The notes beneath the pieces are model-generated. The model did not search any database and was not told the DNA's origin. It saw only the letters and a list, made by a program, of their open reading frames with translations. Below are positions 1-60,968 of a DNA stretch of 64,000 nt, piece by piece. Each line of letters opens with the position of its first letter. Position 1 is the stretch's first letter. A program made the position numbers and the translations under genes. Source of the DNA: Vermamoeba vermiformis (taxonomy: Eukaryota); NCBI GenBank assembly GCA_045837725.1, contig JBEWZL010000136.1:62001-126000 (forward strand). Reading direction: 5' to 3'.

Positions 1-1464
1 TGGGTCGAGCCACTTCCTAATAAGGGTAAGATCTTAATATAAGCCTGTCTTAATTATTCTAAAAAGATCCGATTATTTTATTAATACATTTCCTAATCAG
101 GTTACGTCAATTTTGCTGGCAGTATATTCACCGTTCACGGCGTTGGCGGCATATTTATATATAACTGCTCATTTGGAATCGTTTCGAACAACAACTTGAA
201 CTTCACTTACGCTGATGCGATCCATCATACAGCGGTCTCAAGCAATATTCATACATTCAACAATACTATCGAAAATGCAGCTGACGATGGCATTGCCTGC
301 GTGACTTATTTGCCTTCCCCGCCAAACTACAACATTCGCTATTCTCAGAATTCGGTCAAAAATAACTGGGGAGGGCGCGGACTCACCATCATTGGCGGCG
401 ATAATATTATTATAGAAGACAACTACGTCGAGAACACGGCTAATGCTGCGATTTGGCTTGCCTCTGAGAGCAGCTACAACACTGCCGCGCCTACAAATGC
501 GATTGTCAGACGCAACACGGTGCGGTACAGTACGCTGCTGAGCAACGGCACCTGTGCGCCGACCTCACTTCCAGCGATGGGCATTGACATTGGCAACGCA
601 GAAGAGTCCCATAACATTCAGTTCGTGGATAACACTGTCGAGTACAGTTGCAATCCGATATTCAGACTCACGGGCGGACCCAACAATGACGTCACGGTCG
701 CTGGCAACACGTTCACTTCGTGTCGTGCGTACTCCGTGTACGTGACCAGCAATGTCTTGCAGTTGGATTTTATTGGCAATAAGATCGATGGTGCCGTTGA
801 CAACGCATTTGTTGGCATTAATTCACCGGACGTGGTCAATTTCGTCAACAATGAAATTTCGGATGTTTTGACTGACACGGGGCGCATTCAAGTCGTAGTC
901 TTCAATTCAGTGAATCATTTGCAGTTCACCGGCAACAATCATTCTCAAACTACAACTACTAATGCCCGAAGATACTTGGAGATTGCTTCGGCTAATGCAC
1001 TGGTCATCGACAACAATCAAAATTTGACCGTGCCACTCAGTTACGTCGTTCCAGCGAACACGAGCACATTTGCATTGCCGACTGCGACTGATTTCATCAT
1101 ACCGACATCAACTTTATCAACTGATATAGCAGCCAGTACCTTCTTAAAGTCTGCAAGCGGATCTGACTTAAAATTTGTCGTGGCGTATGGCGCTGTTGGT
1201 GGCAAAGTTGACACTTCGATCGATCGATCTACGGCGACATTTACGTTCAGTGCAGGACAAGTCAGCGGCAGCTTCAAATTTGTCGTTAAATCGGCCGATC
1301 AAAGTATCGCTGAAGCAGTGTGCAGGGTCGAAATGGTCGAGCCTCAAAATCAACCACAAAACAACGGCAATGGTGCACCTAACGCCGTGCAATCGAGTGC
1401 TTCCGTACAAAGTGCAGTATTCTCGTTGTTTTTACTGTGCATTTTTGTTGTAATTTTAGCGTAG
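1..1464 (+). CDS. 5'-truncated right-handed parallel beta-helix (pectin-lyase-fold) surface protein with C-terminal GPI/TM signal
   Basis: Exon 1-25, GT-AG intron 26-100, then a long exon in frame with ORF 196..1464. Asn-ladder beta-helix repeats (DDGIACVTY, NNWGGRGLTIIGGDNIIIEDN); ends in a Ser-rich spacer plus hydrophobic tail (SSASVQSAVFSLFLLCIFVVILA). Confidence 0.8.
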
Positions 1465-2840: not shown

Positions 2841-3455
2841 CTGAAAATTAATTTTAATTGATGGCATTAAAAAGAGCAAATATAAGTTCTACGATAATTA
2901 TCGTAATAATTTATGAATATTTGTCGAGTATGCCGTTTAAAAGTTGTGGATTGACAACCTACAACGATTTTTTTACCTTAATTCCTCAGGAACGAATTTT
3001 AGCTGCTAAATTTTATCGCTGTAGATGATAAAGCCGTACTCGTTTGAGGTTTGAGATAGGTCAAGTAAATAAATAAACAAAAAATCTGGTTTTGGCGGTA
3101 AATCTTCGGAATAGACCGGTCTCCCTTCGGAGTAGGATTATCAATTGTATTCTATCGGTCTCGCAGTTACGGCGCTAAATAAGTGACGATGAAACGTGAT
3201 GCTGCTTTAAAATTAGAACAATTCAGCGACAGAATTTTCCCTAAGAATTGCGAATCAATAATTTAATTAAATCAGTCGCCGAGTTGCCGGTAAACAGTAT
3301 CTCCACGTCCATCAACGTTCTACCACCACGGGAAACACGTGAGTCATTTTAATATCTAACCTCGGACAATTAAATTTTTTAGCACGTGCTGAGATCGCAG
3401 CATTTTCTATTGTTTTGCTTGGGCTTTTTAACCTATCCGTAATACATAGAGCATA

Positions 3456-6400
3456 ATGGAAGTGAACTTAGAAGACAAATCTAAAGAGGATTTGATAGCG
3501 GAGGTTCATAAACTACGTCAGATCATTTCCGAAAACGAAACGAGATGGAAGCAAGATCGCTATGCAGGCGTTTGCTTGGAGAATATGTATCAATTTGTGG
3601 GTCTATTGGATATAGAGGGCCGATTATTAGGCGCAAATCAACCCGCGTTGCGCGCCGGTGGGTTGACTCTGGCCGAGATTCAAGGTGTTTACTTTTGGTA
3701 AGCGATTTTATGGCTTATTTCACTATCATATATTGATATTGTACTTGATATTTTTAGTGTACTAAGGGTCGTTATTTTAGACCCTTGAGACTCGCAATTT
3801 ACAACTTTAATGACGTAAATTATCTTCAAATAATACACTAAGCATTTAAAATAATTATTTGCAACAAAATAGGGTATTATTTAGTGACTCAAGTATATTA
3901 TTATTCAGCAAAAATTAATGGCTTTTCATGCAGGGACACTCATTGGTTTTCGACATCCCAAGAAAGTATTGACCAGTTGAAGGTCTCTTTTGCCGAGGCT
4001 TTGCGCGAGAAGAAGTTCATTCGCTACGAGGTCGACGTATATGCAAGACAGAAAGGTGCAGAGATCACTACAATCGATTTTTCGTTGCTTCCGGTGTTAG
4101 ATCCACAAGACAACAGCAAAGTGGTTTACGTCGTTGCTGAAGGACGCGATATTATGGAGAAGAAGAAGGCAGAAGCTGAAATTGTGCGAAAGAATCAAGA
4201 ATTACAGGATCTCTATGACAAGATCAAGGTAAGCGAAATAGTTTTATGAAATCCGAAACTAGTTTGCAGTAATTTCACGTTCAATCTATGGTAAATGCCC
4301 GATTATTGCTTGATCTATTATTATTGGTGCCACGTAATGAATCACATCTCGATAAAGGCAGTTTAAAGTCGCGTGCTAAAATTGCATCCCAAAAAACACC
4401 TTATTTAGACTTTCGTGGTTTACAACCCCAATAACTGTATTTAACTGTTGCAATTATGATATGCTCTTGCATCATAATTATGGCCTTTTACAGATTTTTG
4501 TTTTATTTTTTCGTTTTTTTTTAGTGGATCTGACTCCTTTTTAGGAATTGGATGAATCGAAGAGCATGTTCGTGGCAAATATCAGTCATGAGCTTAGAAC
4601 ACCTCTGGCACTGATTCTAGGATTGACTGAAAAGGTCCTCTGCTCTGATGATGCGAAAGAATGGGATCCCGACAATACTAAATCATTGGAGACTGTTATT
4701 GATAACGCTAATATTTTGCTCAAGGTAGGTATTATTTACTCAATATACACAGGCCGTTTCAAGGCTATATTTTTCGATCTCTTTCGAGAAACGTTTCCTT
4801 CGGAGATTTTCAATTTCGATTTCTTTTAGCTAGCTGCCTATAATTAGAAATCAACCAGTCTTTATGACATATTTCAAATTATGGCCTCGTTGACATTAAT
4901 TAAAGCGAATTGTTACGCGTCAACGAGTTAACGGGGCTCGGCAATTTTACCTATTTAGGCAATTCGCACTCGGACCTAACTTAATGCTATTTTTAGCACG
5001 TAAACGACTTGCTGGACATCTCTAAGCTAGAGGCATCCGAAATGCGCGTACATTATTTGAATACGAACGTCTCTGATTTCGTGGATCGACTCGCATCTTA
5101 CTTCGAGATCTTGGCAAACTCGCAACGAGTGAGCTTTAGCGTCAAGACTACACCTTCATTCACCGCACAATTGGATCACGATAAAATGGAGAAAATCGTT
5201 TTGAACTTGTTATCAAACGCGTTCAAATTTACGCCACCAGGAGGCAACATCTCATTGACAGTTCGAAAGACGAAAAGTCCTAGCGCAGTTGTTCCTCGTG
5301 GCGCATTTGAAATAGTCGTAGCGGATTCTGGACCTGGCATTCCAGCTGATAAGCGGTAAGTGCATCCAACCAAAACAAACAAGGCTATTTTTGTCTTTTC
5401 CATTTGCTATATGAAGCTTATTTCCGAAGTATATTTTGGTTTTATTTCATAAATTTAAATTATCATACAAATAAGGCTAATTGAATTGGTTTTAAGGGAG
5501 CTGATCTTTGAGCGGTTCCGTCAAATTGAAGGCAGCGCAAACAGAACGCATGGTGGAACTGGCTTGGGCTTAGCCATCGTCAATGAGTTCATTAATATTC
5601 TTGACGGAACGATTGAAGTCAGCGAGTCACAATGGGGAGGTGAGTTTTCGCTAATTTTTAAAAAGCTGGATCCGTTCCGATCCGGGCTAAAAAGACGTTT
5701 ATTAAGAACCGAAGAAATTGTGCGGAGGTATACGTACCTCGTGTATTAATCATTTTGATCCAATTAGGCGCCAAAATGACAGTGACTTTACCTATAAACG
5801 CACCAGAAGGAACTGTAGTCGAAGACACTCATGCCCCTGAAACAGCTCAACAGTAAGATTAATAGAAGTGCGATATATAATATGCTAATAGTACGTTTAG
5901 ATCATCGAAATCAATTCAATCTGCAGTCACTGGACGCGTTAAGCAAACCCTTGCGGATTTGACTCAGCACTTGCACACAATCGCGTCCTTGTCCGATGAT
6001 ACTGATAGCGATGTCTTGGATAGATTCGATAATAGTCCCACTACGCCTCTTAACTTGAAGAAATACGAACCAGTGGATGTGGTACGTGAATTCGTCGGAA
6101 TTGACAAGTTTCATAACCTAACGCGTTGTTGCACGAATAGGCTGAGGAAGATAGGCCTCTAGTACTGGTTGTTGAAGACAATCAATCGTTGAATGATTAC
6201 CTGTGCGATCTACTCCGAACCGAGTACCGCGTGATGGGTGCTAACAACGGCAAACAAGGATTGGCCAAAGCACTTAAACACCATCCTGACTGCATCATAT
6301 CGGGTACGTCTATAGTTATAATATATTATTACTTAATATTGACGGAGATAATAATTATGCTTATTAAATTTGACACGCACTACAAATTTAGCAAATTCTA

Positions 6401-7014
6401 AATTATTTAGTTTTCTTTCATTCACTCACAATTGTCGCGTAAAAATGTCGGCGGGGTACTTACGATTTTTACGGCAGATGTCATGATGCCTATCATGAGC
6501 GGAGACCAAATGGTCCGCGAGATTCGGAGCCATTCGGAATTAGATGCGGTGCCGATTATGCTGCTTACCGCGAAAGCCGATGATACTACCAAGTATAATC
6601 TACTACAAGGCGGAGTCCAGGAGTATTTGAGCAAGCCATTCAAAGCAGAGGTACGTCGCGCGACAGTGTCGGTTAAAATGGATCCGCATCTCAGATGTTG
6701 GGCACATTTATCCGATAATTGAAAAGATACGGGTGCAATATCCGTATGATCTATTATACGCAGAATATCATTTATATAAGAAACTACAATTTAAGTCCAC
6801 GTGTTTGGTACTTTTATCCATACCAGACATACTCACGAGTTATTTATAGGACGTATTGCTGCGAGTGCGCAATCTAGTGTCTATTCGCCTTACATTTTTG
6901 TCTTTACGTCAGTCGTTGAACGAACGGAACAAGGATCTTAAAGAATTACTTGAAGATCTAACGGTTTTGTTTGGTCGGGATACGCTGATTAGTAAAATAG
7001 AAGAACAACGATAG
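3456..7014 (+). CDS. Soluble hybrid sensor histidine kinase PAS-HisKA-HATPase_c-REC, TodS/StyS/TutC-like
   Basis: About 10 exons. PAS (YQFVGLLD...GGLTLAEIQG...DFSLLP...AEGRDI), H-box SHELRTPL, N-box NLLSNAFKFT, G1 DSGPGIP, G2 GGTGLGLAIV, REC (LVVEDN...DVMMPIMSG...LTAK...SKPF). Last exon 6850-7014 ends EEQR*. Confidence 0.9.
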
Positions 7015-7533
7015 CTAACTGAATAAAAACAAAACAAATTAAGAGCTTGTAAATAAATCCTTATCCGTTGTATAAAATAAATAGAATTCCCAAACCAGAT
7101 CACAATCTCGCCGTTTCAAACACAAATGCATTATTGAATCAATGGACGTTATTGAGTGAGACACTAACCGCTTTGTCGGGCCTAATGCGAATAGTTCAAA
7201 TAAATTTGTACGCGTCGTCATCAAAGACTCGAAAACACGAAAGAAAAGAAAAAAGTTCCAAAAGACCCAACAACACTGGAAAAAGTCAGGGACTTGGGGT
7301 AAAATTTGGCTTACGTCGCTTGTACTCTTTCCATATTTAGAAAAGTTACCCGGTCAAACTTGGTCAACCCATCCAAATCAATAAAAGAAAATTCTCGAGC
7401 AGTTCTTGTCATTCCTTCAAACGTAACTAAACAACACGAAACATAAGTGTTATTTACTACAACCAAGCGCAGCAAACAGCACTTGCCTATCATAAAGTTC
7501 ACGCAGAATTCTAAATCTTCAAACCAAATCGCG

Positions 7534-7767
7534 ATGACCTCACTCACCCCTCAACTCACCCAATTAAACACCATTAAAGAAGAAGACCGAAATTACTTCC
7601 TCAAGTACGGTCGAATGCCCAAGACTGGTCCCTCACGCAAGCGCACAAAGTACTTCGACAGTGCGGACAGGGAGATCGAGAAGGCTCGCCTCCGAAACAA
7701 GCCCGAATTGAAGCCAATCTCCGAGAGTACTGAAGCTTCTCCACGAACAAGCTCCATTGCCGTTTAA
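7534..7767 (+). CDS. Endosulfine/ARPP-19 (Igo) family PP2A-B55 inhibitor
   Basis: 77-aa ORF containing KYG-x-MPK...KRTKYFDSAD, the Greatwall/Rim15 phosphorylation motif (FDS[GA]D). Confidence 0.75.
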   Translation: MTSLTPQLTQLNTIKEEDRNYFLKYGRMPKTGPSRKRTKYFDSADREIEKARLRNKPELKPISESTEASPRTSSIAV

Positions 7768-39748: not shown

Positions 39749-42700
39749 TTACATATTGCAGTTGAACTGCCGGTCATACATTACATTTAACCTCGCGATA
39801 ATTACATCTAGCGTCAATCGTTTTTGCGGATCTGGATCCCAGCAACCGGTGATTAATTCGGCGTAATCTGCAGGACAACCAGCAGGAATGACTTCGCGAT
39901 TGCCATCAATAACGAACTTTGTTACGTCCCACACGTGATTGAAGGCGGTGTAGGGCTCTTTCTGTGTGATGATAACCCACAGAAGAATGCCGAAGCTGTA
40001 AATGTCCGCTTCTTTGCTGTACCGTTTCTTTTGCAAAATTTCTGGGGCCATGTAAATTGGAGTGCCAACATTTCTTGTGTACGTTTCCATTTTGTCCTCG
40101 GCAAATCTTCTGGCACTTCCAAAGTCACTTAATCGAATCATGTTTTGTGCATTGACATCCGTTGAGGCAATGAGCACGTTATCTGCTTTAATGTCTCTGT
40201 GCAGCACGTTGTTTTTGTGTAAAAAGTTGATCGCTTCAGCTATCTCTAGCACGATCTTCAATTTTGTAGCGTAAGGGATCTTTTTGGTCATAAGCTTCTC
40301 CAAACTGCCGTTGGGTATAAATTCTGTAACTATAGCGAGTTTTCCAGGCAGTTTTGATGCGCCAATGAGTGATACTATTCCAGGATTCTTCAACTCGGAC
40401 AAAAATTGGATCTCGCGTTCAAACTCTTCCATCGTTTTTGGGTCGACCCATTCTTGAAATTTCAGCATTTTCACAGCCACTATGTTGCCGTTGTAATTGC
40501 CTCTGTAAACAACACCAAATCCTCCCTCGCCAATCGGTGCGGAGTCCAAAACAATGTCATCGATATCTATCCAAACAGACGGATTCGTGACGATGTCACA
40601 TGGAATGTAGAAGTGTCTGCCAATGTCTGGCATCTCCACGCCAATTAAGGCTGTGACATTTGTTGCCACGTTCATTTTGAGCTTGAAGTGAACAGCGTCG
40701 TTGTCAGTAGACGAGTCAATAGTGCTAGGCCTGTTAATACGCCATCTGTAGTCTAGTGTCACGTCTTGAGGGGTAGCTGTCAGTGTGCACTTCGGCGTCT
40801 CTGGCAGATGAAATTTCACGGTGAAATTTCGTTCTTTTTTGGACGCATCTAGCAACGGAATTTCCAAGTCTGTTGCTCTTTTCGAGATTCGTTTCTTGGT
40901 TTGTTGTAATGTCGAAAGTGTTGATATTAATCCACCTTGCCACTTGACTTCAATTGTATCAGTATACTCTTCATTGACGTTGAATTTTTGTTGACCGCCA
41001 AAGGTCAAAGCGTGCTTTGAAAATGTTACTGGCAAGTTCTCGAGTTTTCTGCAGAGTTTGGAATCAGCAGGAGCAGTCCACGGTGGCAGTAGTGTGTATT
41101 TGATGTCTTCAATGCCATACGTAGCCTTGTTGAATGAGATTTGGCGTCGTTGGTTCATTTTTCTTCGAACAAAAATGACGGCCAATATGACTCCGACAAT
41201 AAACGCGCCACCAATAAATAATGCAATCAATATAATTGCTTTGGGCGATAGTCTGACACTTAATTCGACTTCATCGGTCCAAATCGAGTCAACGGGATTG
41301 GTCAGCTGAGCTTGGATTGTGTGTCCGTCCATGTCCATATTTGCTTCGAATGTCAAAGTCCGTCCTGTTTCCTGCACAATCAATTATTGATTAACAAAAA
41401 AAGTACCAAAGATTACTTCATATCGTTGCGACTTACGCCTAAAATCTCTTCGCCGTTTCGATACCACTTGTACGTCAGTCGCTCTTCAGGCGTGGCAAGG
41501 ATCGAAAATGTAATGTTTTTGCCCGCATTTACATCTGCTACTGGCTGGCTGAAATGAATCAATTCGGGTTTTCCCAGGATCGTTAGCGTTGTGACTCGAT
41601 GTTCGGAAGGATTTCCTCCTTGACGCAAACTGACTAATACTTTATATTCACCTTCATGCTCAGTGGACACATTGGCGATGGTATAAGAAGTAGAAGAGGC
41701 GCCTGAGGCCGAAAAAATTAGTCGACGAGTTGCTGGCAAAAAAAAAAGGTTGATTTTTACCTGGAATTCCCCTTGCTCCCAGATACCACGCTAATATTAC
41801 ATCCTCGTCCGTGTGAATCTCGACGGATAAACTAACAGTGTCACCAGGGAATGCTCTGACACCTCCTGCATTCGGAGAGCTGACTGAAATGAGAACAACT
41901 TGGATGCGGAACGGGAAGGGGCCAGCAGTCCCGGCAATGTTGTGCATGTACAAGTGATAATCTCCGCTGTGAATGGTGCTGGCTTTGTCTCGTTCGAATA
42001 GTCCCACTGTCGTGTTCTGAATCCAATTGCCGTTCTGTCTCCATTCGTACAAGATTCCATAGCCTTCAGAAGCGACGTTGATGATGATTTGTGAGCCAAC
42101 AAGAACATCGTACAGCGGTCGCAAAGGTTGTCGCAACTTCGGTAAAGTGACAACCACGAGACGAGTTTCTGTGCTAACGGAACCAGACGGGTTGCTGGCA
42201 ATAAGTTTGACGATGGTGTTGTTGAACGCAGGAGTAAGAACAGGCGTAAACCAAAAGGTTTCTAACGAATTGTAAAGGACGACACTGCCGTTGAGCATCC
42301 ACGTGTAGGTCACTGCCACGCCAGTCACCACTGCGCGGAAATATTGCCTTGTGTTCACGGCGGTAGGTTTGATGTCTTCAAATTTGATGATGAATTGGGG
42401 AGGGCTGTGAATGAGAACCAGGGCGACGTTACTTCGGGCAAAGCCTGACGGATTGTGTACCTCTACATAGGCACTGAAAGCGTCCCGAACGTTTGGCACT
42501 TGAATTGTGGAAACGCCATCTTTTTCGCTTACGTTGAACGGACTATCAATGCTTAATTTCCAGAAAAAAGTCAATGCTCTTCCGGTTGCGTGTATGCTGA
42601 GTTCAGCGGTCTCGTTGGCAAATATTGACTGCGGAGTTGGTATTTGTTTGGTGATAACTGGCGCTGGCTCCATGCTAAGTGTAATACTAACTGAGCTAAC

Positions 42701-44684
42701 AAAGCCATTGATATTGTATGCCTCGCACCGCATCACTAGTCCATTGTCGAGGTCGCTTAGAGGCCACATTCGAAGCCGCGAAGACTCCTGCAACATCAGA
42801 TCTGAGCCGCGGAACCAACGATATTGCACTCCTTGGCCTGTCGCATTAACATATAGTATAGGTTGTGTGTCTGGAAAGTAGAAGAACGGAGATTCGGAGT
42901 AACTGACTATTGTCGGTGCAGGCTCGGGACGAATCCAGATCTCGGGACCAAGAGTGACTCCCGACGGGTTTCGAGCTTCAAGCTGATACATCGTTGACAC
43001 AAGACTCGGGTCTAGTTGTACTTCAAGAGTGCTTTCGTCGAGTCCAACAGTGTCGTTAAATCGGATCCAGCGAAATGACAGTTCTTCACCAACGACTTCC
43101 ATATCAAGCAACAAGGTCTGATTCAATAGCATGTAATACTCCATCATGTCGTAGTTGCCGAAGGACGGTTTTGGCTTGAATTCAATTGGCATTGGACTGG
43201 ACTCGACAAACCCATTCGGATTCGATACTCTTGCTACCACTTGCGTCAAGTTCTCGGAAAATTGTCCAGCTCGAAGTTGCACGACAGTAAGTCCAGTCAA
43301 GTTCTCGTACTTAGTGCCATCGATAATCCATTCGTATTGCAGGCGTTGTCCGAGTGCTGCGACGGAGAAGATGACGTCTTGGCCAGGAAAAACTGGGCCT
43401 GGTACTACTGACGTTGACACTATTTCTGGAATTGGATGTGCTAGAATAACACTAGGCTCCGACCGCAAGGTAAGACCGTCCGTATTGACGCTGACTATGT
43501 ATTGTGTGCCATTATCCGCGAGTCCAAAATCGGTAATATCGATGCCTGAAGAAGTCTCTGCTGGAATAGGGTCGCCGTTTCTGTACCATTGATAGAATAC
43601 CTCGAAATCTCCTTCTGTAGTAAAGCTTAATAGTCGTGCTTCGTCAAAAAAAGTGTAGGACTTACTCAGGACTTGTATGTCGAGACGAATCGAATCACCG
43701 ACAAACAGGAAGCTCTCGCTGGGCGGGTTCTTAACAATTGCAAAGGGCTTGGTGGACAGCATGATGCTTAACTCCGTGCTTTGTCCGCATGCGTCTTCAA
43801 TTTTGATTGAATATTGGCCATAATCTCGCGCTTCAAAATTCGGGAAGTAGAATGAATCTGCTTGCGCGAGAAGCGTGCCTGCTTTGAACCATGAGAATTG
43901 AAGATCCAGCCCAGTAGCGTTAATGCTTAAAGTGAATGGCTGTCCTACTACCGCTAATCCAGGATTAAATTGTTGAACGACAACAGGTGGACAAACACGA
44001 AGAGTAGCAGCGTTGGATGTGATTGATGTCTGACATCCGTCTTCAACTCGAACAGAATACAAGCCACTATGCATTGGTTGTGCTGAAGATATCGTGTAGA
44101 TCGCTTGGTTTGCGTTAGCGATTGGTTGGTTGTCCAGTAGCCATTGAAGCGAGATTTGAGTTCCAGATGCGCCAATCCAAAACTGGACGTCAGTTCCAGC
44201 GACTACGAAAGCACTTTCAGGTTGATTTTCTATTACCAACGGAGAACAAAATGTAAACATTGGTGAATAGGCAACAGCGCGTCTGCATCTGGTAGGTAGG
44301 CCGCTGGCAGAATTGAGCTGTAGTCTTATTCGACCAGACGAGGCCAGCGACGTTGTTATCCATTGAAATGACGATTCTCCAAAAGCGCCTGACCCCAGTC
44401 TAATGCACCCTTCGGTTTGAGTGCCTGGACAGAATTGGATTTCGACTATGTTCGGGGAGCAGACCGGAAACATCGTCCAGCGCCATTGAATATTTATTGG
44501 CTGTCCCACTGTTATTGATCCACCATTCGGACTAGTAACAAAGTCCGCTATTTCAAGGATCTGGCCTATTAAATAATTAAAATAAATAAATTTAATAATT
44601 ATGATTCTATTGTTTCTTACATTCGCCAGCACCAAATAATAATATCACCGCATACAAAAATATGCAAGAATATTTGGCTTCCAT
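39749..44684 (-). CDS. Receptor kinase: signal peptide, ~10 Ig-like repeats, TM, juxtamembrane domain, TKL kinase; paralog A
   Basis: Signal exon MEAKYSCIFLYAVILLFGAGE; Ig I-set-like repeats (LQWLLDNQPI...SGLYSVRV); TM AIILIALFIGGAFIVGVILAVIFV-RRK; GEGGFG, VAVK, HRDIKADN, DFG, GTPIYMAPE, CW...P.KR. Confidence 0.9.
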
Positions 44685-44857: not shown

Positions 44858-47800
44858 TCAATTTATTACGAACTGCTGTTTCAGCATTTTGTCTAATTTT
44901 TCAATGACTACAGGTAGTGGTGTTCGTTTTTCAGGCTCGTGTGTCCAGCAGCCAGTAATCAACTCAGCGTAGTCTGCAGGACAACCAGCGGGAATGACTT
45001 CACGTTGGCCGGCCGCTACAAAGTTTTCCATCTCCAATTTGCTATTGAAGGCAGCGTAGGGTTGTTGTTGCGTAATAATGACCCACAGCAAGATACCAAA
45101 GCTGTAAATGTCCGCTTCTTTGCTATAGTTCTTTTTTATCGTTACTTCTGGGGCCATGTAGATTGGCGTGCCAACGTTTCTGGTAAACTGTTCCATTTCT
45201 TCCTCGCCAAATCTTCTTGCACAACCAAAATCGCTCAAGCGAATCATGTTTGACGAGTTCACATCGAGAGATTCCACGAGCACGTTATCAGCTTTGATGT
45301 CGCGATGAAGCACGTTGTTTTGGTGAAGAAAATGAATCGCTTTTGCCACCTCCAACGCGATCTGCAATTTCGTCGCGTAAGGTAATTTCTTCGCCATCCA
45401 TCTTTCCAAACTTCCATTTGCAAGATACTCTGTAACTATAGCGAGTTTTCCAGGCAGTTTTGATGCACCAATGAGTGACACTATTCCAGGATTCTTCAAC
45501 TCGGACAAAAATTGTATCTCTTTCTCAAAACCTTTCATCTTTTTTGGTTCAAGGTCTTGACATTTCAGCATCTTCACAGCCACTATATTGCCGTTGTAAT
45601 TGCCTCTGTAAACAACACCAAATCCTCCCTCGCCAATCGGTGCTGAGTCCAAAACGATATCATCAACATCGATCCAAATAGAAGGATTTGCGACGATGTC
45701 ACAAGGAATGTAGAAGTGCTTGCCTATCTCAGGCATTTCTACGCCGATCAAGGCAGTCGCATTTGTTGACACGTTGAGTTCCAGCTTGAATTGGACTGTG
45801 TCATCGGCAGTGGCATTTGAATCGTAAACGCTTGGTCGGCTTGCTCTCCAACGGTGGTCTAGGACAACTTCATCAGGATGAGCAGTGAGCTGAAGTTTTT
45901 GCGTCCGTGGTGGATGGAATATTATTGGAAAGTTGCCGCCTTTCTTCGAGGCATCCATCAGTGGGATGTTCAGATCTGTTGTCTTTGACAGTGTTTTTTT
46001 GCTCTGATGCAACGTTGATATTGCTAACTTGAATCCGCCTTGCCACTTCACTTCAATTGTGTCCGTATATTCCTGATTGACGTTGAATTTCGTTTCTCCT
46101 CCGAACGTCAACCGGGTCTTTGAAAAAGTGACAGGGAGGAGGTCAAGTTTGGTGGCTAGCTTCGATTCTACAGGCGCTTTCCAAGTCGGTAACAATCGGT
46201 ACTTGAAATCGTCAATGCCGTATGTAGCCTTGTTGTACGTGATTTGACGTCGTTGATTAATTTTTCTTCGTACGAAAATGATAGTGAGAATGACGCCAGC
46301 AATGAGAGCACCGCCAACAAACACAACAATCATAGATATCGTTGCATCTGATATGCGAACACGTAATTTAACTGGCTCACTCGTAAGCGAGTCTGCTGGG
46401 TTCGTTAGCTCAACGCTGATTAGATCTCCATTCATGGCATAGCTGGCTTCAAACGTCAAAACTCTGCCCGTTTCCTATTCAATGATTAATTGCTGCACTT
46501 TTATGTTTTTCAATTACAACTTACTGCTTCAATTGGCTCACCATTACGTAGCCATTGATAAGTTATTCGATCATTTGGAGTAGCCGTCGCGGACAAGGTG
46601 ACGATGTTTCCTGATTGGACGTCGTACACTGGTTGATTATAAATGGGTTGTTGAAGAACTGGGCCTCCAAGAATTGCGACTGTAGTTACTGATCGCTTCA
46701 CGTACGAGCCTCGGTTTCTGTTATGACCGATGTAGATCTCATAGTGTCCACTATTGGCATTAGAGACATTGGCTAGTGTCAGAGACGTGTCGTGTGCTCC
46801 TAGTGAAGTGAACGCATGAGTTAATGCACGCTAGTAAACAATTTGTTTCCGGTTACCTTCAATCTCCTCGTTTTCGCGGTACCACTGGATTTCTAAGACG
46901 TCATACCTCTTCGTTGAAAGCGTGACACTGAGAGTGAGAGCTTCTCCTTCAAACACGTTGCTGTTGGTACCGTTGAGCGATTGAACTTGGAGTTGAACAA
47001 CGACAACACGGAACTCGTAGGGTCCCGTCGAGCCAGCGAGGTTGTGCATATAAAGCTGATACTTTCCGCTCATTCTAAAACCCACTTCTGAAATTTCCAA
47101 AGGACCAGTGTTGTTCGTTAAGAAAGTGCCGTTGTGTCTCCATTCGTACGTCACACCAAAGTCGTTCGAGTCCACATTGACTATCAAACTTGTAGTCACC
47201 AATACTTCGTAAACTTTTTGTAAAGGTGTTTGTAATGTCGGTTTGGTAACAACTATTATCATTAATTGATCTGAAACAGAACCAGATGGATTGCTAGCTG
47301 TCACCTTCACGTATGTACCGTTGTACTGCAATCCAACTCTGGTCACTTGAAAAGTAGCTGCGGCATCAGCCAAGACTACACTATCATTGACGCTCCATGT
47401 GTAGGTCACTCCAGTGCCAAGTGCATTAGCCTGTAATAGTAATGTACTGTTGACGGGGATGGGGAAGATCGTGGGAAATCGTCTAACAAAATCTGGGGGG
47501 GGATGAATAAGTACGAAGGCAGTGTTGCTCACAACAGAACCTGAGGGATTTTGCACACGAACAATCGCGTTAAATCTCGTGACAACATTTGGCACTTCGA
47601 TAGTTGAGCGATCAGCTGTTTTCGGCACGAAGTTGAGTGCTGGCTGCAATATCCATGTGTATGTTAAGTTGTTGCCCAGTGCTTGAATGCTCAGCTCAGC
47701 GGACCGGTTCATAAAGACTGATATTGGTGTTGGCATCTGTTGCACGATTACGGGAGCAGGTTCCAGCTTCAAGGTGAAATTCACTGAGCTTGAAAAGCCA

Positions 47801-49789
47801 TTGACATTGTATGCTTCGCCACGTATAACTAGTCCGTTGTCTTGCCCGCTCAAGGGCCACAACATGAGCTCAGGCGAGTCTTTGAAATACTGAAACTCGG
47901 AGCCACGGAACCATCTATATTGCACTCCTTGGCCAGTCGCATTGATGTATAACACGGGCGACTGGTCAACGAAGTAGAAGAGGGGCGATTCTGAGTGGCC
48001 CGTGATCTCGGGCGCTGGTTCAGGATGAACCCACATTACAGGACCAACTGTCGAGCCTGTTGGGTTGATGGCCTCTAATTGGTAACTCGTTGATACTATA
48101 GCGGGGTCCAACTGCACTTCTAACGTGGTTTCATTGCGTTGAATGATCGTGTTATTGTTTTTGATCCACCGGAAAGACAGGTCTTCGCCCACCACAAGAT
48201 TCGTCAAGTCCAACGTGATGGTCTGATTTAGCAGCGCAAAATACTCGAAAGGATTATCCGCAAGGAATTCTGGTGGTGGCTTGATAATAAGCTTCATTGG
48301 CTCGGAGTCCACAAACCCATTAGGATTAGAGACTCGGACAATTATTTCCGCAGAGCTGGTGAGGTCTGTTGCTGTTACTTGCATAGATGTAAGTCCAGTT
48401 GCTCGCTCTTCCAAAACTCCATTAATGAGCCATTCGTATTGCAAGCTCTCGCCGATAGCAACGACCGAGAAAGTCACATTTTGCATTGGCCACACTGATG
48501 CTGGATCTACCGAGAGCGACGATATAACAGGCGAAGGATAGGCTAGAATAGTACTAACATCTGATGTGATAGTATGGCCGTTTGCACTGACGCTAACGAC
48601 GTAGTGTGTGTCATTGTCGGCGAAACTAAAATCCGTTAAGTTGTAGCTTGGCGTGTTTGCTCCTCTGATGGGAATGCCTTCTCTACACCATTGATAATTG
48701 ACGTCGAAGTTCCCTTCTGAGTTAAATAGATTAGAACGGAAAGTACTGAAAACTTGTCTTACTTAACACTCGAACATCCAGCTGGATCGAGTCACCAAGA
48801 AACAGAAAAACTTCGCTTGGCGGGTTTGCAATTATAGCAAATGGCGAACTATACAGCACTATTTGTAGCTCCGTATGTTGTTCGCATGCAGCCTCAATTC
48901 TTACGGAATATTCGCCGTAATCTGCGGGCTGAAAGTTTGCAAAGTTTAAAGAATTGGCTCGGGAGATTATTCTTCCTTCTTTGCTCCAAATGAATTGAAG
49001 ATCAGGCCCAGTGGCGTCTACCTGCAAGGTAAATGGCCTTCCAACTTCCGCTTGCAAAATAGGACTGAATTGACGAATTACAAGGGGCGGACAAACCCTG
49101 AGCGTAGCAGCGTTGGATGTGACACTTGCTTGACAGGCATCGTGAAGGCGAACGGAATATTGGCCACCATTGACAAGCTGAACAGATGGTATCGTATATG
49201 TGGGCTGCCTAGCACCAGCTATCGGTTGGCCGTTAAACAGCCATTGATAGGAGAGCTGAGATCCAGATGCGCCGACCAAAAATTGAACTGGATGGCCAAT
49301 CAAAGATTGTGCATTATTAGGGTGCTGACCAATTAACAAGGGTAGACAACGTAGATTAAAGACGGGAGAAAAGGGTCCTGATGAGAAGAAAGGAGTACGG
49401 CACTTGGTACCTAAAAGAGCAATGGGCTTTTTGTATTGAAGGCTAAAACGTCCATCTCCAATTCTATCTACATTCCATTGAAACTCCGTGACCGCCGTTG
49501 AAAGACCAGCAGCAATTATTGAGCATCCTTGTGTTTGTGTGCCGGGACAAAACTGGATTTGATAACCAGCGCAAACAGGAAATGCCCATCGCCATCTCAA
49601 TTGAATAGATTGCCCAAGGGTAACTATTCCGCCGTTAGGGGTAACAGTAAGTTCCTGACCTATTCAAATAAATATTGGTATCAACAACAAAAAGAAACGG
49701 GCTTTTATTTGCTTACCAATTGACTCGCCAAAGTAAATTGGCAACAATAATATTAATATGCCAAAGTATTTTGCTTTTGCGGTCTTCAT
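44858..49789 (-). CDS. Ig-repeat receptor TKL kinase, paralog B
   Basis: Signal exon MKTAKAKYFGILILLLPIYFGES; same exon structure and domain order as paralog A; intact kinase motifs. Confidence 0.9.
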
Positions 49790-55432: not shown

Positions 55433-58400
55433 ATGGCAACAAGGGCTCGGTTTCTACTAACGCTGTTCTTTAGCGTATTTTTTGTTGCATCCGTTTACAG
55501 CGTTCCCCAACTCCGTTTCTTGAACGCTCAATTCTACAACAACACAATTGGCTTTACTACCAGCCTAACAAATACAACTGGAACATTTGCTTTAACGGGT
55601 GATTTCCCAGCACTCTACTATCGTGGCATTGCTCACACTGTTTACTTGCCACTTCCATCTTCTGTTTACGGCTACCTCAACACCCCGCAAACGTATTATG
55701 CTTATAATACAAATGATGATTACTGGCCACACAACCCATTGGCGAATTTGACGGTTACTCTGACCAACAACCAAAGCTACAGTCTCATCTACGTTGCTCA
55801 AACGGATACTGAAAGGAGAGACAATGTTACTGGCAACTATGCGCTTACTACGAACTTCCCTACTCCGCAATTGTTCTTGTTCGAGGAAATTCCTACTTAT
55901 CTTGGTACTTTTGTCAAGATCGTGAACGTTGCTGGTAAGCACATCCGCCAAAGAAATTAGTTTCTTCTTATCCTTACGGAAGCATGAGAGTCACCTTGGA
56001 TTATTATGGCGACTACGATGTTCCTTTTGGAGGCTCAACCGACTTCATCGAAGTGAATTCAAACGAATATTTGTCCTTTGTGGCTCATTTCCCAGGCTTT
56101 AACAGTAAGAAAAATCTACAGAGAAGTGATTAATATTGATACTAACGCATAAATCAAACAGAAACCGCTCAAATTTGGGTTTACAACTTCACATCTAATG
56201 TGATCTACATTCGTGGTGATATTGGTAGTCCGTTTGACTTCAGCTTTGACACCACATCGATCAACTTGGAACAACTCCAGCAACAACCTGCCAATCCTCC
56301 AGTAGTATCTGTTCCTCCAGTTGATGTTCCAGCGTGGACCTGCAAGATCAGATTCATCAATGGCCTTAACAGCGATTATTATTATACTTTAACAATCTCC
56401 AATCAAAGTGCAGTTGTACATTCAATTTCAACCAAATACATTAGCGAATATGAATACTTCTTCGGCAGCGCTGGTTATTACACCGTAGAAGTTCAAGATC
56501 CGTACGAGAATAGTACTTTCGGCGTGGATGTCTTTCTGGAGAATTCCCAGAGTTATACCCTAATTAGTAACAGCTATTACGGTATAATCTTAGTTCAAGA
56601 CTTTCCGAATATCTACAGCCAGGATTTAAGCTACGTGCAAGTGGTTTACAACGGTAACTATTTCGAGTAAAGCATTCATTATGGTCGTATATTAACGACC
56701 ATATCTTAGTGGATCATATTGCCTTCATCGATTTGTTCACGGATAGGTGGGGCTGGCAAAAACCGTACGTGCACAACGGCGACTACTCTCCTTTTTCCTT
56801 CTCTCCGGACAGTTATGGAGGCTTGGCTAGCATTTCTGTGTATTCCGACAATTTTACAGGTATTACTGCGCAGCTCTCATACTTCGATGCATCTAACATC
56901 GACTAATAGTAAGCAATAACTTCTTCATGCCTAACGGAACTGCCACGACCATTTATATCCTGGGTTCAACTCCGAACGTTGGTTTTTACATTGACACGAA
57001 GCAATTGCCTGTGCCGATGGGTCCTCTTTGTACCAACGGCGTTCTTGAAAGCAACGGAGTTTGCAATTGCTTTTCAGGGTAGGTGGAAAACCGTTGCGTA
57101 GAAATGTACTTACTAATTTATTTGTAGGTTTTACTCCGACAACTCGTCGCCGTACAAGTGCAACGTGCCTAGTCCATCTTATTGTACTTTAAGGAATCAA
57201 AGTGACGCTCTGAGCAATGACTTTGTCCCGTACATGAATTGGTGGGCTACCGCGCAAGTCAACGGCAATCAATTGTTCGTCAGCATTTTATCCGAGCTCG
57301 TAAAGAATCGCCGCACCCTGATCGAGCTCCCGAACCCCCAATGCAACTTCCTGAATAGTCCCCAATACTATCAAATGACGTCCCAGAACTGCCAAGATCG
57401 TTTTGATATTCAATTTCCATTCGTTGAGTGTGGCTTTACGAAAGTATCAACACCTTACGAAGACTTCTACAAAGGCACTGTGCACGTGAAACAGATCGAT
57501 CAAGTGACAGTTGGAGGCATGACAACAGAACGAGTGATTGACACACCATTCCCAATCTCCATCAGAATGCCAAAACAACTCGCTGTAAGTCTAAACATTC
57601 CAACTGCCACTCTCTAACGTTGTTGTATCAGGTTGAATCATATGTGCAAGTGTTCGGTCCTCCGAGTCTTGCCATCGACGCAGCATTCGTTGGTCAAACA
57701 GTGAGCACTGAGACTCAGTCAGGCGATCTTCAATACGTCTCTGGAGTGCAATATCCTCTTCAAATCGAAGCAGTACAGCTCGTTGACTTGCCTTACGGAG
57801 TCTACGCGTGGGTCGAGCTTGTGAATGTCAACTGCACCGACTTCGGTCCTTGCGTTCAACGTCTTGAAGTGCACATCAACACAACGAGCTGTCAGATCTC
57901 AGGCACTTATCGCATGGTGGTGTCACTGAGCTGTCGAAGCGATCAAGGATGTCCTGATGAAGCAAAGAACGGTACTCAAGCATTCATCGAGTCACGCATT
58001 GTGTCACAAAGCTTGTGCAGTGAAGTTGGTGTGGACATTGATCTCAATGGGTACATTCAAGCGTACACCGATGCCACCTTCTCTTCGCCAGCATTGGCAT
58101 TCTATCCAGGACAGTAAGTAGTGAACGAAGAAAGCCTAATGAGGTGCAGTACTAACATCGATGTAGGTCTGCGTACTTCATGATCAACGCGTACTCATCA
58201 CGTGTCAGCTTGTCAAAAGTGACACTCGAATCAGTGTACTACTACGGACCAAACATCAACTTCCAGTACTTGTTCTTCAACGGCAATCAGACAGACATTG
58301 CCATGTCAAGCAACTTTGTGAGTGGATCGATGGGAAGCTCACAAGCATGGTTCGGTCTTGACGTGAGCGTGAGCACTCCTCAGTCGGGCGACAACACGCT

Positions 58401-58779
58401 GTTCAAGCTGTATCAAGGTCAAAACGGCGTGTACAACTTTGTTGCGGTTGTTGATGTCGAGTGGTTCGTTGCAAACTCATCGTCAAGTGTCACTCCGGTT
58501 GGACCTCCAGTGGAACCATCCAATCAACCCACTGACCCAGGAGCACCATTCACGTTCAAGAAGAGAATGGCACTGCAAGGCTCTGTGTCGAATCAAGGCT
58601 CACAGTTCACAGCACAAGTGCAAATTGCAGGTCCCACTCCATCGTCACAACAACCTCCTCAACAACAGCAACAACAAACGCCCGTTGTGGCTTCCAAACC
58701 TGACGATAAGCCTGTCTCTTCTGGTGTTTCGTTGATTGCTTCGTGGTTAGTTTTCTTCGTTATGTTCGTAACTCTTTAA
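55433..58779 (+). CDS. Secreted/GPI-anchored surface glycoprotein: two N-terminal beta domains, EGF-like, ZP-module-like region, KKR site, hydrophobic tail
   Basis: Signal peptide MATRARFLLTLFFSVFFVASVYS; two related repeats (LRFLNA / IRFING); EGF-like CTNGVLESNGVCNCFSG; C..C..FPFVECGF...YKGTV; YTDATFSSP...PGQ; FKKR; SSGVSLIASWLVFFVMFVTL. Confidence 0.75.
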
Positions 58780-58973: not shown

Positions 58974-60968
58974 TTAGAAGAGCAGGGCTGAAGCAAGAGC
59001 CATTACAACCATCCATGACACTATAACTGAGACACTGGACGAGACAGGATCAGATACGGGTGGCGTTTGTTGTTGAACGGAAGGCGTGGGACCAGCGATC
59101 TGAACTTTCGCAGCGAATTGGGAGCCTTGATTGGCCGTCGAGCCTTGAAGCACCATTCTCTTTTTGAAAGGTGTTGGCACGTTGTACTGCTCCACGGGTG
59201 CTTCCGTTGGAATGCTCGGGTCGGTGGGAGGACCAATAAGATTTGACCCATTATTGGCAACGGAATATTCAACGTAGACCACTGCAACAAAGTTGTACAC
59301 GCCGTTTTGACCCGGGTTCAACTTGAACAGCGTGTTTTGATTCTCATAAGTCGTGCTGACAGCGACGTCAACACTGAACCACGCTTGCGAATTGCCTCGT
59401 GAGCCCAGCGTGAAGTTGTTCGCCACCGCAATGCCAGTAGGTTGTTGATAGTAGTACAAGTAATTCCAGCCAACGTTAGGTCCGTCGTAGGTCACGTAAT
59501 CGAACGTCACTTTTGACAAGTTGACACGTGACGAGTACGCGTTGATCAAGAAGTACGCAGTCCTATGTATTCATTAGTAAGTACTTGGCGCAAATATTTT
59601 GAGGCGAAGAAGGCAAGACTTACTGTCCAGGATAGAACGCGAGGGCAGGCTGGGTGAAATTAGCATCACTGTACATTTGAATGTAGCCGTTCAGATCGAT
59701 GTTGACGGCGACTTCAGGGCACACTCTTTGCGCGACAATGCGTGACTCGATGAACGCTTGAGTGTGGTTCTTGGCTTCTTCAGGACAGCCCAAATCACTT
59801 CGACATCCAACGGACAGCAACATGCGATAAGTGCCCGAGAAGTAGCAGTTTGTGGTGTTGAAATGGACCTCGACACGTTGAATGCAAGGACCGCCCTCAG
59901 TGCAGTTGACGTTCAGTAGCTCGACCCATGCATTGACACCATAAGGCAAGCCAACGAGCTCTACGGCCTCAATTTGCAAGGGATATTGCACGACAGACAT
60001 GTATTGAAGGTTTCCTGAACGAGTTTCAGCGCTCACTTCTTGACCGACGAATGCTGCATCGATGGCAAACGATGGAGGGCCGCTAAGTTGAATGAAGTTT
60101 GGACCTAATGAAAACAGCGTCAATTAGTTGATCACGTGACTTACTTCATCGCGTGTGCTTACCCAAAGTTGCTTGCTCATCCGGATCCACATCGGGAAAG
60201 GCGTGTTAATCACTCGTTCAGTGGTGATACCTCCAACAGTGATCAAGTCAATTTGCTTCACGTTGACAGTGCCCGTGTAGATGTCCTCGTACGGTGATGA
60301 AGAGGTCCTTGTGAAGCCGCACTCGAGGTACGGGAAAGTCATCTCAAAGCGGTCAACGCAGCCGTCATTGACGGTCTTAAAGTACTCTGGGCGCGAGAGG
60401 GAGTTGCACTGCGAGTTTGGTAGCTCGATCAGAGTGCGGCGATTGACGACAAGGTTCGAGTAAAACGTCCAAGACAACTGTTCGCCGTAGAGATCTGCGT
60501 AGCCCCACCAAGGCACCCAGTCGTTGCTGACAGAGTCCGTTTGGTTAAGCCAAGTACAGTAATACGGAGCACGATCAGTGCAAAACTGACTCGAGTTATC
60601 ATTGGCATTGAAGTAACTGGAGAATTCAAAAAGTTAACCCACATCCGGCAATAATATATGGAGTATTGAACTTACCCTGAGTAACAATTGCACATGCCAT
60701 TACTTTCAACATATCCATTGACGCACGTTGGTTCATCCGAGGTCGGGGTCGGATCAGGAATGTAGAAAGCTATAGGTTCTGCAACGTACGGAGTTGCATA
60801 AGGTTGTTGGACAGTATCGTACGGAGCTGCATCCGGTTGTTGGGCAGTATCGTACGGAGCTGCATCCGGTTGTTGGGCTGTATCGTACGGTGCTGCATCC
60901 GGTTGGGCAGTAACAGCAATAACGCTAATTATGATGCACACGAGCAGTGCCAATATTTTGTGCTGCAT
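58974..60968 (-). CDS. Paralogous surface glycoprotein (repeat stalk, EGF-like, ZP-module-like, KKR, GPI/TM tail)
   Basis: Signal MQHKILALLVCIIISVIAVTA; QPDAAPYDTAQ repeats; CVNGYVESNGMCNCYSG; exons colinear with 57165-58779; tail-to-tail with the + strand paralog. Confidence 0.75.
60786..60910 (-). repeat. Coding 33-nt tandem repeat (QPDAAPYDTAQ) x3 plus a degenerate fourth unit
   Basis: gtatcgtacgg(a/t)gctgcatccggttg recurs with 33-nt period. Confidence 0.9.

Follow-up and report, generated by a model that had tools for sequence, protein, structure and literature searches.

We analysed a 64,000-nucleotide stretch of the Vermamoeba vermiformis genome (assembly GCA_045837725.1, contig JBEWZL010000136.1, positions 62,001 to 126,000 of the forward strand), hereafter the window, and in particular the gene at positions 3456-7014 of its + strand. 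From the sequence alone, this gene had been described as a horizontally acquired, half-length copy of the bacterial aromatic-hydrocarbon sensor kinase TodS. In our reading, to which we give a probability of about 0.75, it encodes a soluble cytosolic hybrid histidine kinase, which falls in an amoebozoan clade within the TodS-like double-kinase superfamily and has lost the second of two modules. The layout of this superfamily is PAS-HK-REC-[PAS]-HK-[REC] (HK, histidine kinase; REC, receiver), and TodS, TmoS and StyS form one separate clade within it. The reading draws directly on the gene model and its splicing, the intact catalytic motifs, purifying selection, homology and the position of the protein in trees.

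Read from the ATG at 3456, the gene is made of 10 exons and 9 introns, the latter all bordered by GT..AG, in exact agreement with the start, the end and the 'about 9 introns' of the original prediction. Its coding sequence of 1986 nt is open over 661 codons and closes with a stop at 7012-7014; the product is called the 661-aa protein below. The introns measure 236, 316, 272, 141, 128, 48, 59, 174 and 199 nt in order, and their GC content is 0.27-0.42 compared to 0.45 for the exons. Two spliced contigs of run X5, which comes from a closely related organism, show all nine joints at identical borders; this check of the splicing bore out the earlier description of an intron-bearing eukaryotic gene. 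Each exon piece of the X5 contigs differs from the gene at 0-12 positions, and the eight pieces shown have 41 mismatches together, over about 1760 aligned bases. Among 32 differences taken from the alignment table, 28 are synonymous, and the gene is therefore under purifying selection. The metagenome-derived proteins P0001 (85% identical to the 661-aa protein), P0002 (84%) and P0461 (662 aa, 87%) align gap-free across the exon junctions, and the start codon is common to the homologs P0001, P0002 and P0003. The C-terminal end of P0002 (...EPVDSVRGFKSQGT) resembles a read-through of intron 7 of the window (6082-6140; ...EPVDVVREFVG...). P0002 is probably an intron-retaining transcript of a related species, and P0461, from the same cluster, the spliced full-length form.

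Raw RNA reads matching the gene numbered 7, 4 and 8 in runs X21, X22 and X23 (about 13 million records each) and were 95-99% alike; no joint could be demonstrated in them, their number being too low. Reads of these runs at 3431-3692 and 6837-7098 carry recurrent differences, at 3478, 3482, 3497, 3518 and 3599 and at 6924, 6946 and 6960 respectively, and after 3610 three X23 reads run on in a sequence unlike the window. These diverged reads point to a second expressed copy, be it an allele, a strain variant or a paralog.

The 661-aa protein has the order PAS-HisKA-HATPase-REC without a transmembrane (TM) segment, as first proposed. Pfam searches with single exons identified HisKA on exon 3, HATPase_c on exons 4 and 5, and Response_reg on exons 8 and 9. 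On exons 1 and 2, between which the PAS domain is divided, no PAS model of Pfam passed the threshold; PAS_4 and PAS_9 are matched by the full-length homologs P0003 and P0074, and the two exons themselves match TodS PAS1 in the PDB, as detailed below. No TM segment was found in the protein, whose highest 19-residue Kyte-Doolittle mean is 1.23, and it is therefore soluble. The catalytic and receiver motifs are complete: H-box, N, G1, F and G2 boxes in the kinase; acidic pocket, Asp, Thr and Lys in the receiver. When six proteins were compared to NCBIfam, no TodS or StyS model was among the matches; the best model, LvrA, scored 400-614 bits against a cutoff of 1200, far too low for a family name to be taken from NCBIfam.

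An AlphaFold2 model was computed for P0461 from a 12-row alignment (mean predicted local distance difference test score, pLDDT, 73.3). It predicts an N-terminal helix (residues 10-42), a PAS fold (47-153), a long helix (155-211) running into the dimerisation and histidine phosphotransfer (DHp) domain, the catalytic ATP-binding (CA) domain, a receiver (503-602) and a single C-terminal helix (607-661); the linker at residues 429-498 has a pLDDT below 50. A Foldseek search with the whole model returned PAS-kinase and kinase structures in its top rows, which fits this layout. TodS PAS1 was not among the rows shown for the whole model, a result that neither tests nor contradicts the PAS1 likeness. 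Among the best matches, at ranks 2-10, were the LOV-histidine kinase chimeras YF1 and SB2F1 (4gcz, 8a7f), in which, as in the model, a continuous helix joins the PAS domain to DHp-CA. These chimeras differ in being engineered, in their flavin-binding LOV domain and in having no receiver, with only 17-19% identity.

The likeness to TodS is seen in the PAS domain. When exon 2 was compared to all PDB sequences, TodS PAS1 (5hwt, 5hwv) was the only significant match (E value 1.8e-14, the next being 0.51), and for exon 1 only the same chains were significant (1.1e-6). Full-length comparisons were made with three anchors validated by gene context: StyS of Pseudomonas sp. VLB120 (plasmid pSTY), which adjoins styABC; a TodS ortholog on plasmid p4 of Acinetobacter haemolyticus; and a TmoS-like kinase of Ideonella dechloratans, flanked by meta-cleavage genes and toluene monooxygenase genes. 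The annotation of the p4 kinase (locus L003, 6947-9883) reads simply 'PAS domain S-box protein'. With identical numbering, the PAS1 of this kinase gives an E value of 1.2e-67 against 5hwt, and the kinase gene is preceded by dioxygenase, bphB, bphC and todJ genes, with a response regulator gene next. The 661-aa protein is 37.3% identical to this TodS ortholog over 616 aa (4e-130), 36.9% identical to the TmoS-like protein over 620 aa and 35.3% identical to StyS over 634 aa, the last BLAST alignment reaching aa 661. With all three anchors the match is colinear and extends from the PAS domain as far as the post-receiver helix, the H-box and the receiver Asp align with those of the TodS/StyS-type proteins, and in the PDB alignment the post-PAS helix is very like its TodS counterpart. 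The eight short motifs that had been quoted as family marks all occur in the 661-aa protein; five of them match the p4 ortholog exactly as written, and in alignments read by eye P. putida TodS PAS1 also agrees with the four motifs of the PAS domain. On the strength of these alignments the likeness to TodS is real, and the protein is homologous end to end to PAS1-HK1-REC and the post-REC helix, as had been claimed. A tblastn search of plasmids with P0003 gave a sharp step: six records at 35-40% identity over 87-90% of the query, including two annotated StyS proteins, from Pseudomonas sp. VLB120 and from P. putida S12, and lower listed records with 80-91% query coverage at only 27-29% identity.

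Used as a query against larger collections, P0003 proved to belong to a very large family. A word-index search scored 8000 candidates, of which 7930 passed an E value of 1e-10, and an exhaustive search of 1.84 billion representatives returned 191,346 proteins at or below 1e-30. The relatives are 41-46% identical to P0003 and mostly 800-1100 aa long; those with names come from Longimicrobiaceae, Myxococcus, Thermoanaerobaculia, Polyangia and Vicinamibacteria, and include one protein of Acytostelium. A Protein Atlas search with P0003 gave generic bacterial kinase clusters only. A scan of genome contigs with generic H-box motifs named no sister group of the 661-aa protein; locus L007 alone among the 80 listed loci matches it from about residue 40 to beyond residue 600. 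Among bacterial proteins, the top scores against the 661-aa protein belong to kinases of the layout PAS-HK-REC-HK(-REC), with 41-43% identity over about 600-635 aa and E values down to 6e-163. Named examples are found in Cytophagaceae, Longimicrobiaceae, Myxococcus, Thermoanaerobaculia and Polyangia. They share the PAS pocket residues of the 661-aa protein and differ from it in having no introns and, almost all, a second kinase module.

Of 455 collected proteins, 296 match the full first module, with alignments that start no later than residue 50 and end no earlier than residue 600 of the 661-aa protein. In a FastTree of 297 rows, the main clade of 289 rows (support 99) includes the 661-aa protein. 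The StyS-type group holds 126-127 rows (support 96 and 99) within a clade of 170 rows, and the 661-aa protein lies in a sister clade of 36 rows (support 97). There it joins P0003, P0073 and P0074 (support 99), then P0226, P0092 and P0191 (support 95). Exact look-up identified the last three as proteins of Protostelium nocturnum (P0226), Acytostelium subglobosum (P0092, GAM19526.1) and Synstelium polycarpum (P0191), all Amoebozoa of the phylum Evosea and the closest named relatives of the 661-aa protein. Its identity to P0461, P0003 and the pair P0073 and P0074 is 87%, 61% and 46.5% respectively, colinear over the full length, and that to P0092 and P0191 is 39-40% over about 655 aa. An IQ-TREE analysis of 85 rows (LG+C20 with posterior mean site frequencies, PMSF; supports from the Shimodaira-Hasegawa-like approximate likelihood ratio test, SH-aLRT) recovered the single-module group with a support of 100, the 36-row clade with 97 and the StyS clade with 100. 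In a 48-row tree, the TodS ortholog and the TmoS-like protein join StyS in an 11-row clade (SH-aLRT 100) from which the 661-aa protein is excluded, and the seven amoebozoan rows make up a separate clade (support 100).

We then compared constrained topologies by the approximately unbiased (AU) test on 46 rows and 615 columns, with fast searches under the simple model LG+G4. The best tree had all seven amoebozoan rows together (p 0.645), and forcing them to the StyS clade was rejected (delta lnL 74.9, p 0.0003). The trees thus place the 661-aa protein outside the TodS/StyS clade, in an amoebozoan clade of a large, mostly bacterial double-kinase superfamily. The grouping with Acytostelium, Synstelium and Protostelium, together with the rejected union with StyS, argues that the gene belongs to an old amoebozoan family and is neither a recent nor a private transfer of TodS. 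On this point the original prediction, which had inferred a horizontally acquired TodS, is not supported.

The amoebozoan dual kinases P0092, P0191 and P0226 share with the 661-aa protein not only the clade but also a soluble N-terminal PAS-HK-REC, and their clade is possibly the DhkD group of the literature. In the parts of Kabbara et al. 2019 (PMC6324907) available to us, most amoebozoan dual kinases cluster with DhkD, and the available text of Singleton and Xiong 2013 (PMC3783435) gives DhkD two kinases, two receivers and PAS/PAC domains. The topology described in that text differs from that of the dictyostelid relatives P0092 and P0191, which have no N-terminal TM segment. The accessible portions of the Physarum and amoebozoan kinase catalogues (PMC4758236, PMC6324907) list 51 kinases in Physarum, and these portions relate no amoebozoan kinase to TodS. 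Our literature search found no link of TodS to Physarum or Amoebozoa in the texts it covered, supplementary tables, which may list the gene under another name, being outside its range; TodS, Dictyostelium and histidine kinase occurred together only in an unrelated survey. As in eukaryotic hybrid histidine kinases, the kinase of the 661-aa protein is followed by a C-terminal receiver; signalling through a histidine phosphotransfer (HPt) protein is expected of that group, which has a bacterial ancestry. What is unusual in such company is the conserved C-terminal helix, a remnant of a double kinase.

Modules were counted with profiles built from the superfamily alignment. The StyS clade is mostly PAS-HK-REC-PAS-HK (105 of 126 rows) and clade A mostly PAS-HK-REC-HK-REC (68 of 83), a layout also found in the two dictyostelid proteins P0092 and P0191. 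The Protostelium protein P0226 reads PAS-HK-REC-HK, and six proteins, the 661-aa protein, P0461, P0003, P0457, P0073 and P0074, read PAS-HK-REC. Among the other 29 rows of group B1, 12 are PAS-HK-REC-HK and 4 PAS-HK-REC, and most others carry a further PAS, HK or REC after the receiver. A tblastn comparison of the second module of the Acytostelium protein with the window found no second kinase module on the + strand after 7014; apart from the exons of the gene itself, the other matches are to kinase genes of the − strand, located beyond 27 kb. Across the single-module proteins the last 55 residues are conserved, and they align by eye with the start of the Acytostelium linker between REC1 and HK2. 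The protein therefore ends where the second module of TodS begins, as the tail alignment and the absence of a downstream + strand kinase both indicate and as had been noted. Half length thus held as a description (PAS-HK-REC only); truncation of TodS itself did not, the simplest reading of the alignments being that module 2 was lost within Amoebozoa and the first ~55 residues of the inter-module helix were kept. By these comparisons, the 661-aa protein is a derived, truncated, single-module member of the TodS-like double-kinase superfamily.

The domains are distributed over the ten exons, all on the + strand, as follows. Exon 1 (3456..3697) encodes aa 1-80 and two bases of W81. It opens with the start codon and covers the N-terminal helix, at about aa 10-42, and the N-terminal half of the PAS domain, where F47, G49, A60, A64, I75 and F80 correspond to TodS F46, G48, V59, A63, I74 and F79. 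The second half, with W85, F86, V116, I128, F130, A149, E150 and G151, lies on exon 2 (3934..4228, aa 81-179) together with the helix toward the kinase. Exon 3 (4545..4724, aa 180-239) carries HisKA/DHp helix 1 with the H-box SHELRTPL, whose phospho-accepting His194 is codon 4587-4589. Exon 4 (4997..5355, aa 240-358 and two bases of the next codon) encodes DHp helix 2 and begins the ATP-binding domain, with the N-box from aa 309, the G1 box DSGPGI from aa 349 and L326 at the place of TodS C320. The ATP-binding domain continues on exon 5 (5497..5639, to aa 406), with the F-box FERF from aa 363 and the G2 box GGTGLGL from aa 378, and ends on exon 6 (5768..5852, to aa 434) with LPINAPEG. Exon 7 (5901..6081, aa 435-495) encodes a poorly conserved linker of low model confidence. 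The receiver is shared between exon 8 (6141..6303, aa 496-549 and the first base of D550), which holds its first half and the acidic pair in VVEDN (from aa 505), and exon 9 (6478..6650, the rest of D550 to aa 607), with the phospho-accepting Asp550 in ISDVMMP, LLTAK from aa 578 and SKPF from aa 601. Exon 10 (6850..7014, aa 608-661 and the stop codon at 7012-7014) encodes a single long helix at the C-terminus, whose homolog in double kinases is the first part of the linker between REC1 and the second kinase module.

On this basis a signalling path can be proposed. By analogy with the family, the kinase would form a dimer through its N-terminal helix and DHp. A signal from the PAS domain would travel along the conserved helix EKKKAEAEIVRKNQEL into DHp and alter autophosphorylation of His194, and the phosphoryl group would move from His194 to Asp550 of the protein's own receiver. 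The relay of TodS reportedly runs from HK1 through REC and HK2 to TodT. Since no second kinase module follows the receiver of the 661-aa protein, the phosphoryl group would pass from Asp550 to a separate HPt protein and on to response regulators, as in other eukaryotic hybrid kinases. All these transfers are inferred from the presence and conservation of the residues concerned.

The pocket of the PAS domain was compared to that of TodS. In the available text of Koh et al. 2016 (PMC4861429), the toluene pocket of TodS is lined by F46, G48, V59, A63, F79, W84, W85, I114, V126, F128, A145 and G147. HMMER alignments give F47, G49, A60, A64, F80, W85, F86, V116, I128, F130, A149 and G151 as the equivalents in the 661-aa protein, so that 8 of the 12 are identical and the changes V59A, W85F, I114V and V126I are conservative. 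The same text reports that TodS I114V still binds toluene and signals, and that the other pocket mutations tested blocked signalling in toluene. In the table of 297 rows the pocket positions are near-invariant across the superfamily clades. The F46 position is F in 126/126, 44/44, 82/83, 27/29 and 7/7 rows of five groups, and the W84 position is W in 126/126, 44/44, 83/83, 17/29 and 7/7 rows of the same groups. With the PAS region alone, identities of 47-51% are found for many bacterial proteins from several clades, and in the ranking of 368 the TodS ortholog comes 250th and StyS 262nd. As the pocket residues are near-invariant in all clades, they do not discriminate aromatic sensing; they speak for a hydrophobic cavity common to the family, not for aromatic hydrocarbons in particular. 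We suggest only tentatively that the PAS domain binds a small hydrophobic ligand in a pocket like that of TodS PAS1, hydrophobic and lined by aromatic residues.

The strongest alternative keeps both the identity of the kinase and its phosphorelay and supposes that the PAS domain binds no small molecule, serving dimerisation or some other input such as redox state or a protein partner, with the pocket kept for the fold. The equivalents of F46, A63, F79, W84, E146 and G147 are near-invariant in 289 superfamily rows whatever the clade, as this account would expect, and TodS itself integrates a second, non-PAS signal: in the available text of Silva-Jiménez et al. 2014 (PMC4321377), menadione inhibition is mediated by C320, the only Cys fully conserved in TodS homologues. 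The column of C320 was identified by the RCC context of the Acinetobacter ortholog, with the numbering one residue off. It holds Cys in 119/126 StyS-clade and 64/83 clade-A rows and in 0/7 amoebozoan rows, which all have Val or Leu (Leu, L326 in exon 4, in the 661-aa protein). The redox-sensitive Cys is thus absent from the amoebozoan proteins. Moreover, in TodS, the only member with a solved PAS, the pocket residues line a ligand cavity and, according to the passages of PMC4861429 cited above, the mutations tested there, I114V excepted, block signalling in toluene. With these points against it, we consider a PAS domain without a small-molecule ligand unlikely, if still a serious contender.

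The proposal closest to the original prediction is that the protist acquired a TodS/StyS-clade gene, which gained introns, lost its second half and now serves to sense toluene- or styrene-like volatiles. It has in its favour that TodS PAS1 is the only significant PDB relative of the PAS exons, the 37% identity to the TodS ortholog over 616 aa, the eight identical pocket residues of 12 with one of the changes, I114V, functional in TodS, and the TodS-like post-PAS helix. The shared features extend to solubility, a TodS PAS1-type PAS and a colinear first module at 35-37% identity. Against it, the 11-row clade of TodS-like, TmoS-like and StyS proteins (SH-aLRT 100) does not contain the gene, union with the StyS clade is rejected by the AU test (p 0.0003), and the closest named relatives are amoebozoan. 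The pocket residues are kept equally in clades with no known aromatic link, the PAS domain alone brings the TodS ortholog and StyS only to ranks 250 and 262 of 368, and the Cys at the C320 place is absent. TodS, StyS and TmoS also differ from the 661-aa protein in having PAS2-HK2, and the gene in having nine introns and a eukaryotic host. Whereas the anchors adjoin sty, tod/bph-like and toluene monooxygenase genes, no cognate response regulator of the TodT/StyR type and no aromatic catabolic operon lie beside the gene in the window, its neighbours being a beta-helix open reading frame (ORF) and a weakly endosulfine-like ORF. We therefore hold this origin and function to be improbable. With the pocket kept across the whole superfamily and the C320 Cys absent, sensing of aromatic compounds by the 661-aa protein would be speculation.

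Some points weigh against the reading we prefer, an amoebozoan hybrid kinase that lost its second module. The raw RNA reads are very few and imperfectly matching, so that expression in the source organism itself is barely shown. In the IQ-TREE analysis the union of the single-module group with the dictyostelids received a support of only 86, and the long-branch Protostelium protein stands beside it. Because most bacterial neighbours in the tree are metagenome proteins, the direction and age of the transfer are only inferred. Finally, the conservation of the pocket may be structural and not tied to a ligand.

The few RNA reads, and a length shorter than that of most relatives, could also suggest that the gene is a dual kinase in decay, a pseudogene deprived of its second half. 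This is very improbable: the frame is open through 10 exons, the catalytic motifs are all intact, 28 of 32 differences from the spliced contigs of the close relative are synonymous, all nine introns are spliced in that relative, and the single-module form with its conserved tail recurs in three divergent lineages (87%, 61% and 46.5% identity). Bacterial contamination or misassembly, which the mostly bacterial database relatives might evoke, is refuted by the splicing evidence, nine GT-AG introns being removed in transcripts, and has a negligible probability given eukaryotic-type neighbours (Ig-repeat receptor kinases, the weak endosulfine-like ORF) and named relatives from three amoebozoan species.

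The kinase gene is preceded, at 97-1464 (+), by a long ORF that has a hydrophobic C-terminus and includes a region of right-handed beta-helix type (PF13229, E value 6.7e-9). Downstream, at 7447-7767 (+), is an ORF with a weak endosulfine/ARPP match (9.7e-5; 22.8 bits against a Pfam cutoff of 29.8). Five further histidine kinase loci were found in the window, all on the − strand, at about 27.3-28.2, 30.3-30.7, 50.6-51.5, 53.1-54.0 and 62.0-62.8 kb; their ORFs begin with IEAGKM/V and are not close relatives of the gene. The earlier statement that the gene is unrelated to the other kinases of the window went too far: in tblastn with the Acytostelium modules the generic kinase core is shared, at 24-35% identity over segments of at least 73 residues and up to 47% over short ones. 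Two tandem genes at 39749-44644 (-) and 44858-49663 (-) each have long ORFs of immunoglobulin (Ig)-like repeats ahead of a TM segment and a protein kinase domain. The Ig-repeat ORF matches Pfam Ig_3 and I-set, and language-model features put the kinase part nearest to metazoan receptor tyrosine kinases such as PTK7 and Tie, which should be taken as a lead only. The presence of Ig-repeat TM kinases and histidine kinases in one window recalls what the available text of Schaap et al. 2016 (PMC4758236) describes in Physarum. Taken with the amoebozoan clade, this mix would suggest a host resembling the myxogastrids. Finally, 57117-58779 (+) and 58974-60633 (-) form a convergent, tail-to-tail pair of paralogs with similar ORFs (...FMINAYSSRVSLSKVT... 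and ...FLINAYSSRVNLSKVT... respectively), both with a hydrophobic tail.

The single-module form of the 661-aa protein is a natural half of a double kinase, and it bears on how multistep double kinases are reduced to ordinary hybrid kinases. Many amoebozoan histidine kinases have no known input. A superfamily shared with TodS and StyS provides them with a ligand-pocket template (5HWT and related entries), and the comparison with TodS gives a short list of residues to mutate in amoebozoan orphan sensors. A broader proposal, which we regard as rather doubtful, is that the whole amoebozoan clade, the single-module form and the dictyostelid dual kinases alike, consists of cytosolic receptors for small hydrophobic or aromatic molecules with a TodS-type pocket, feeding a phosphorelay of the HPt/RegA type. 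If it were true, the ligands might be volatiles of prey bacteria, fungi or decaying wood, this would be the first demonstration of such sensing by a eukaryotic histidine kinase, and the solved structure of TodS PAS1 would serve as the template for finding the ligands of amoebozoan dual kinases.

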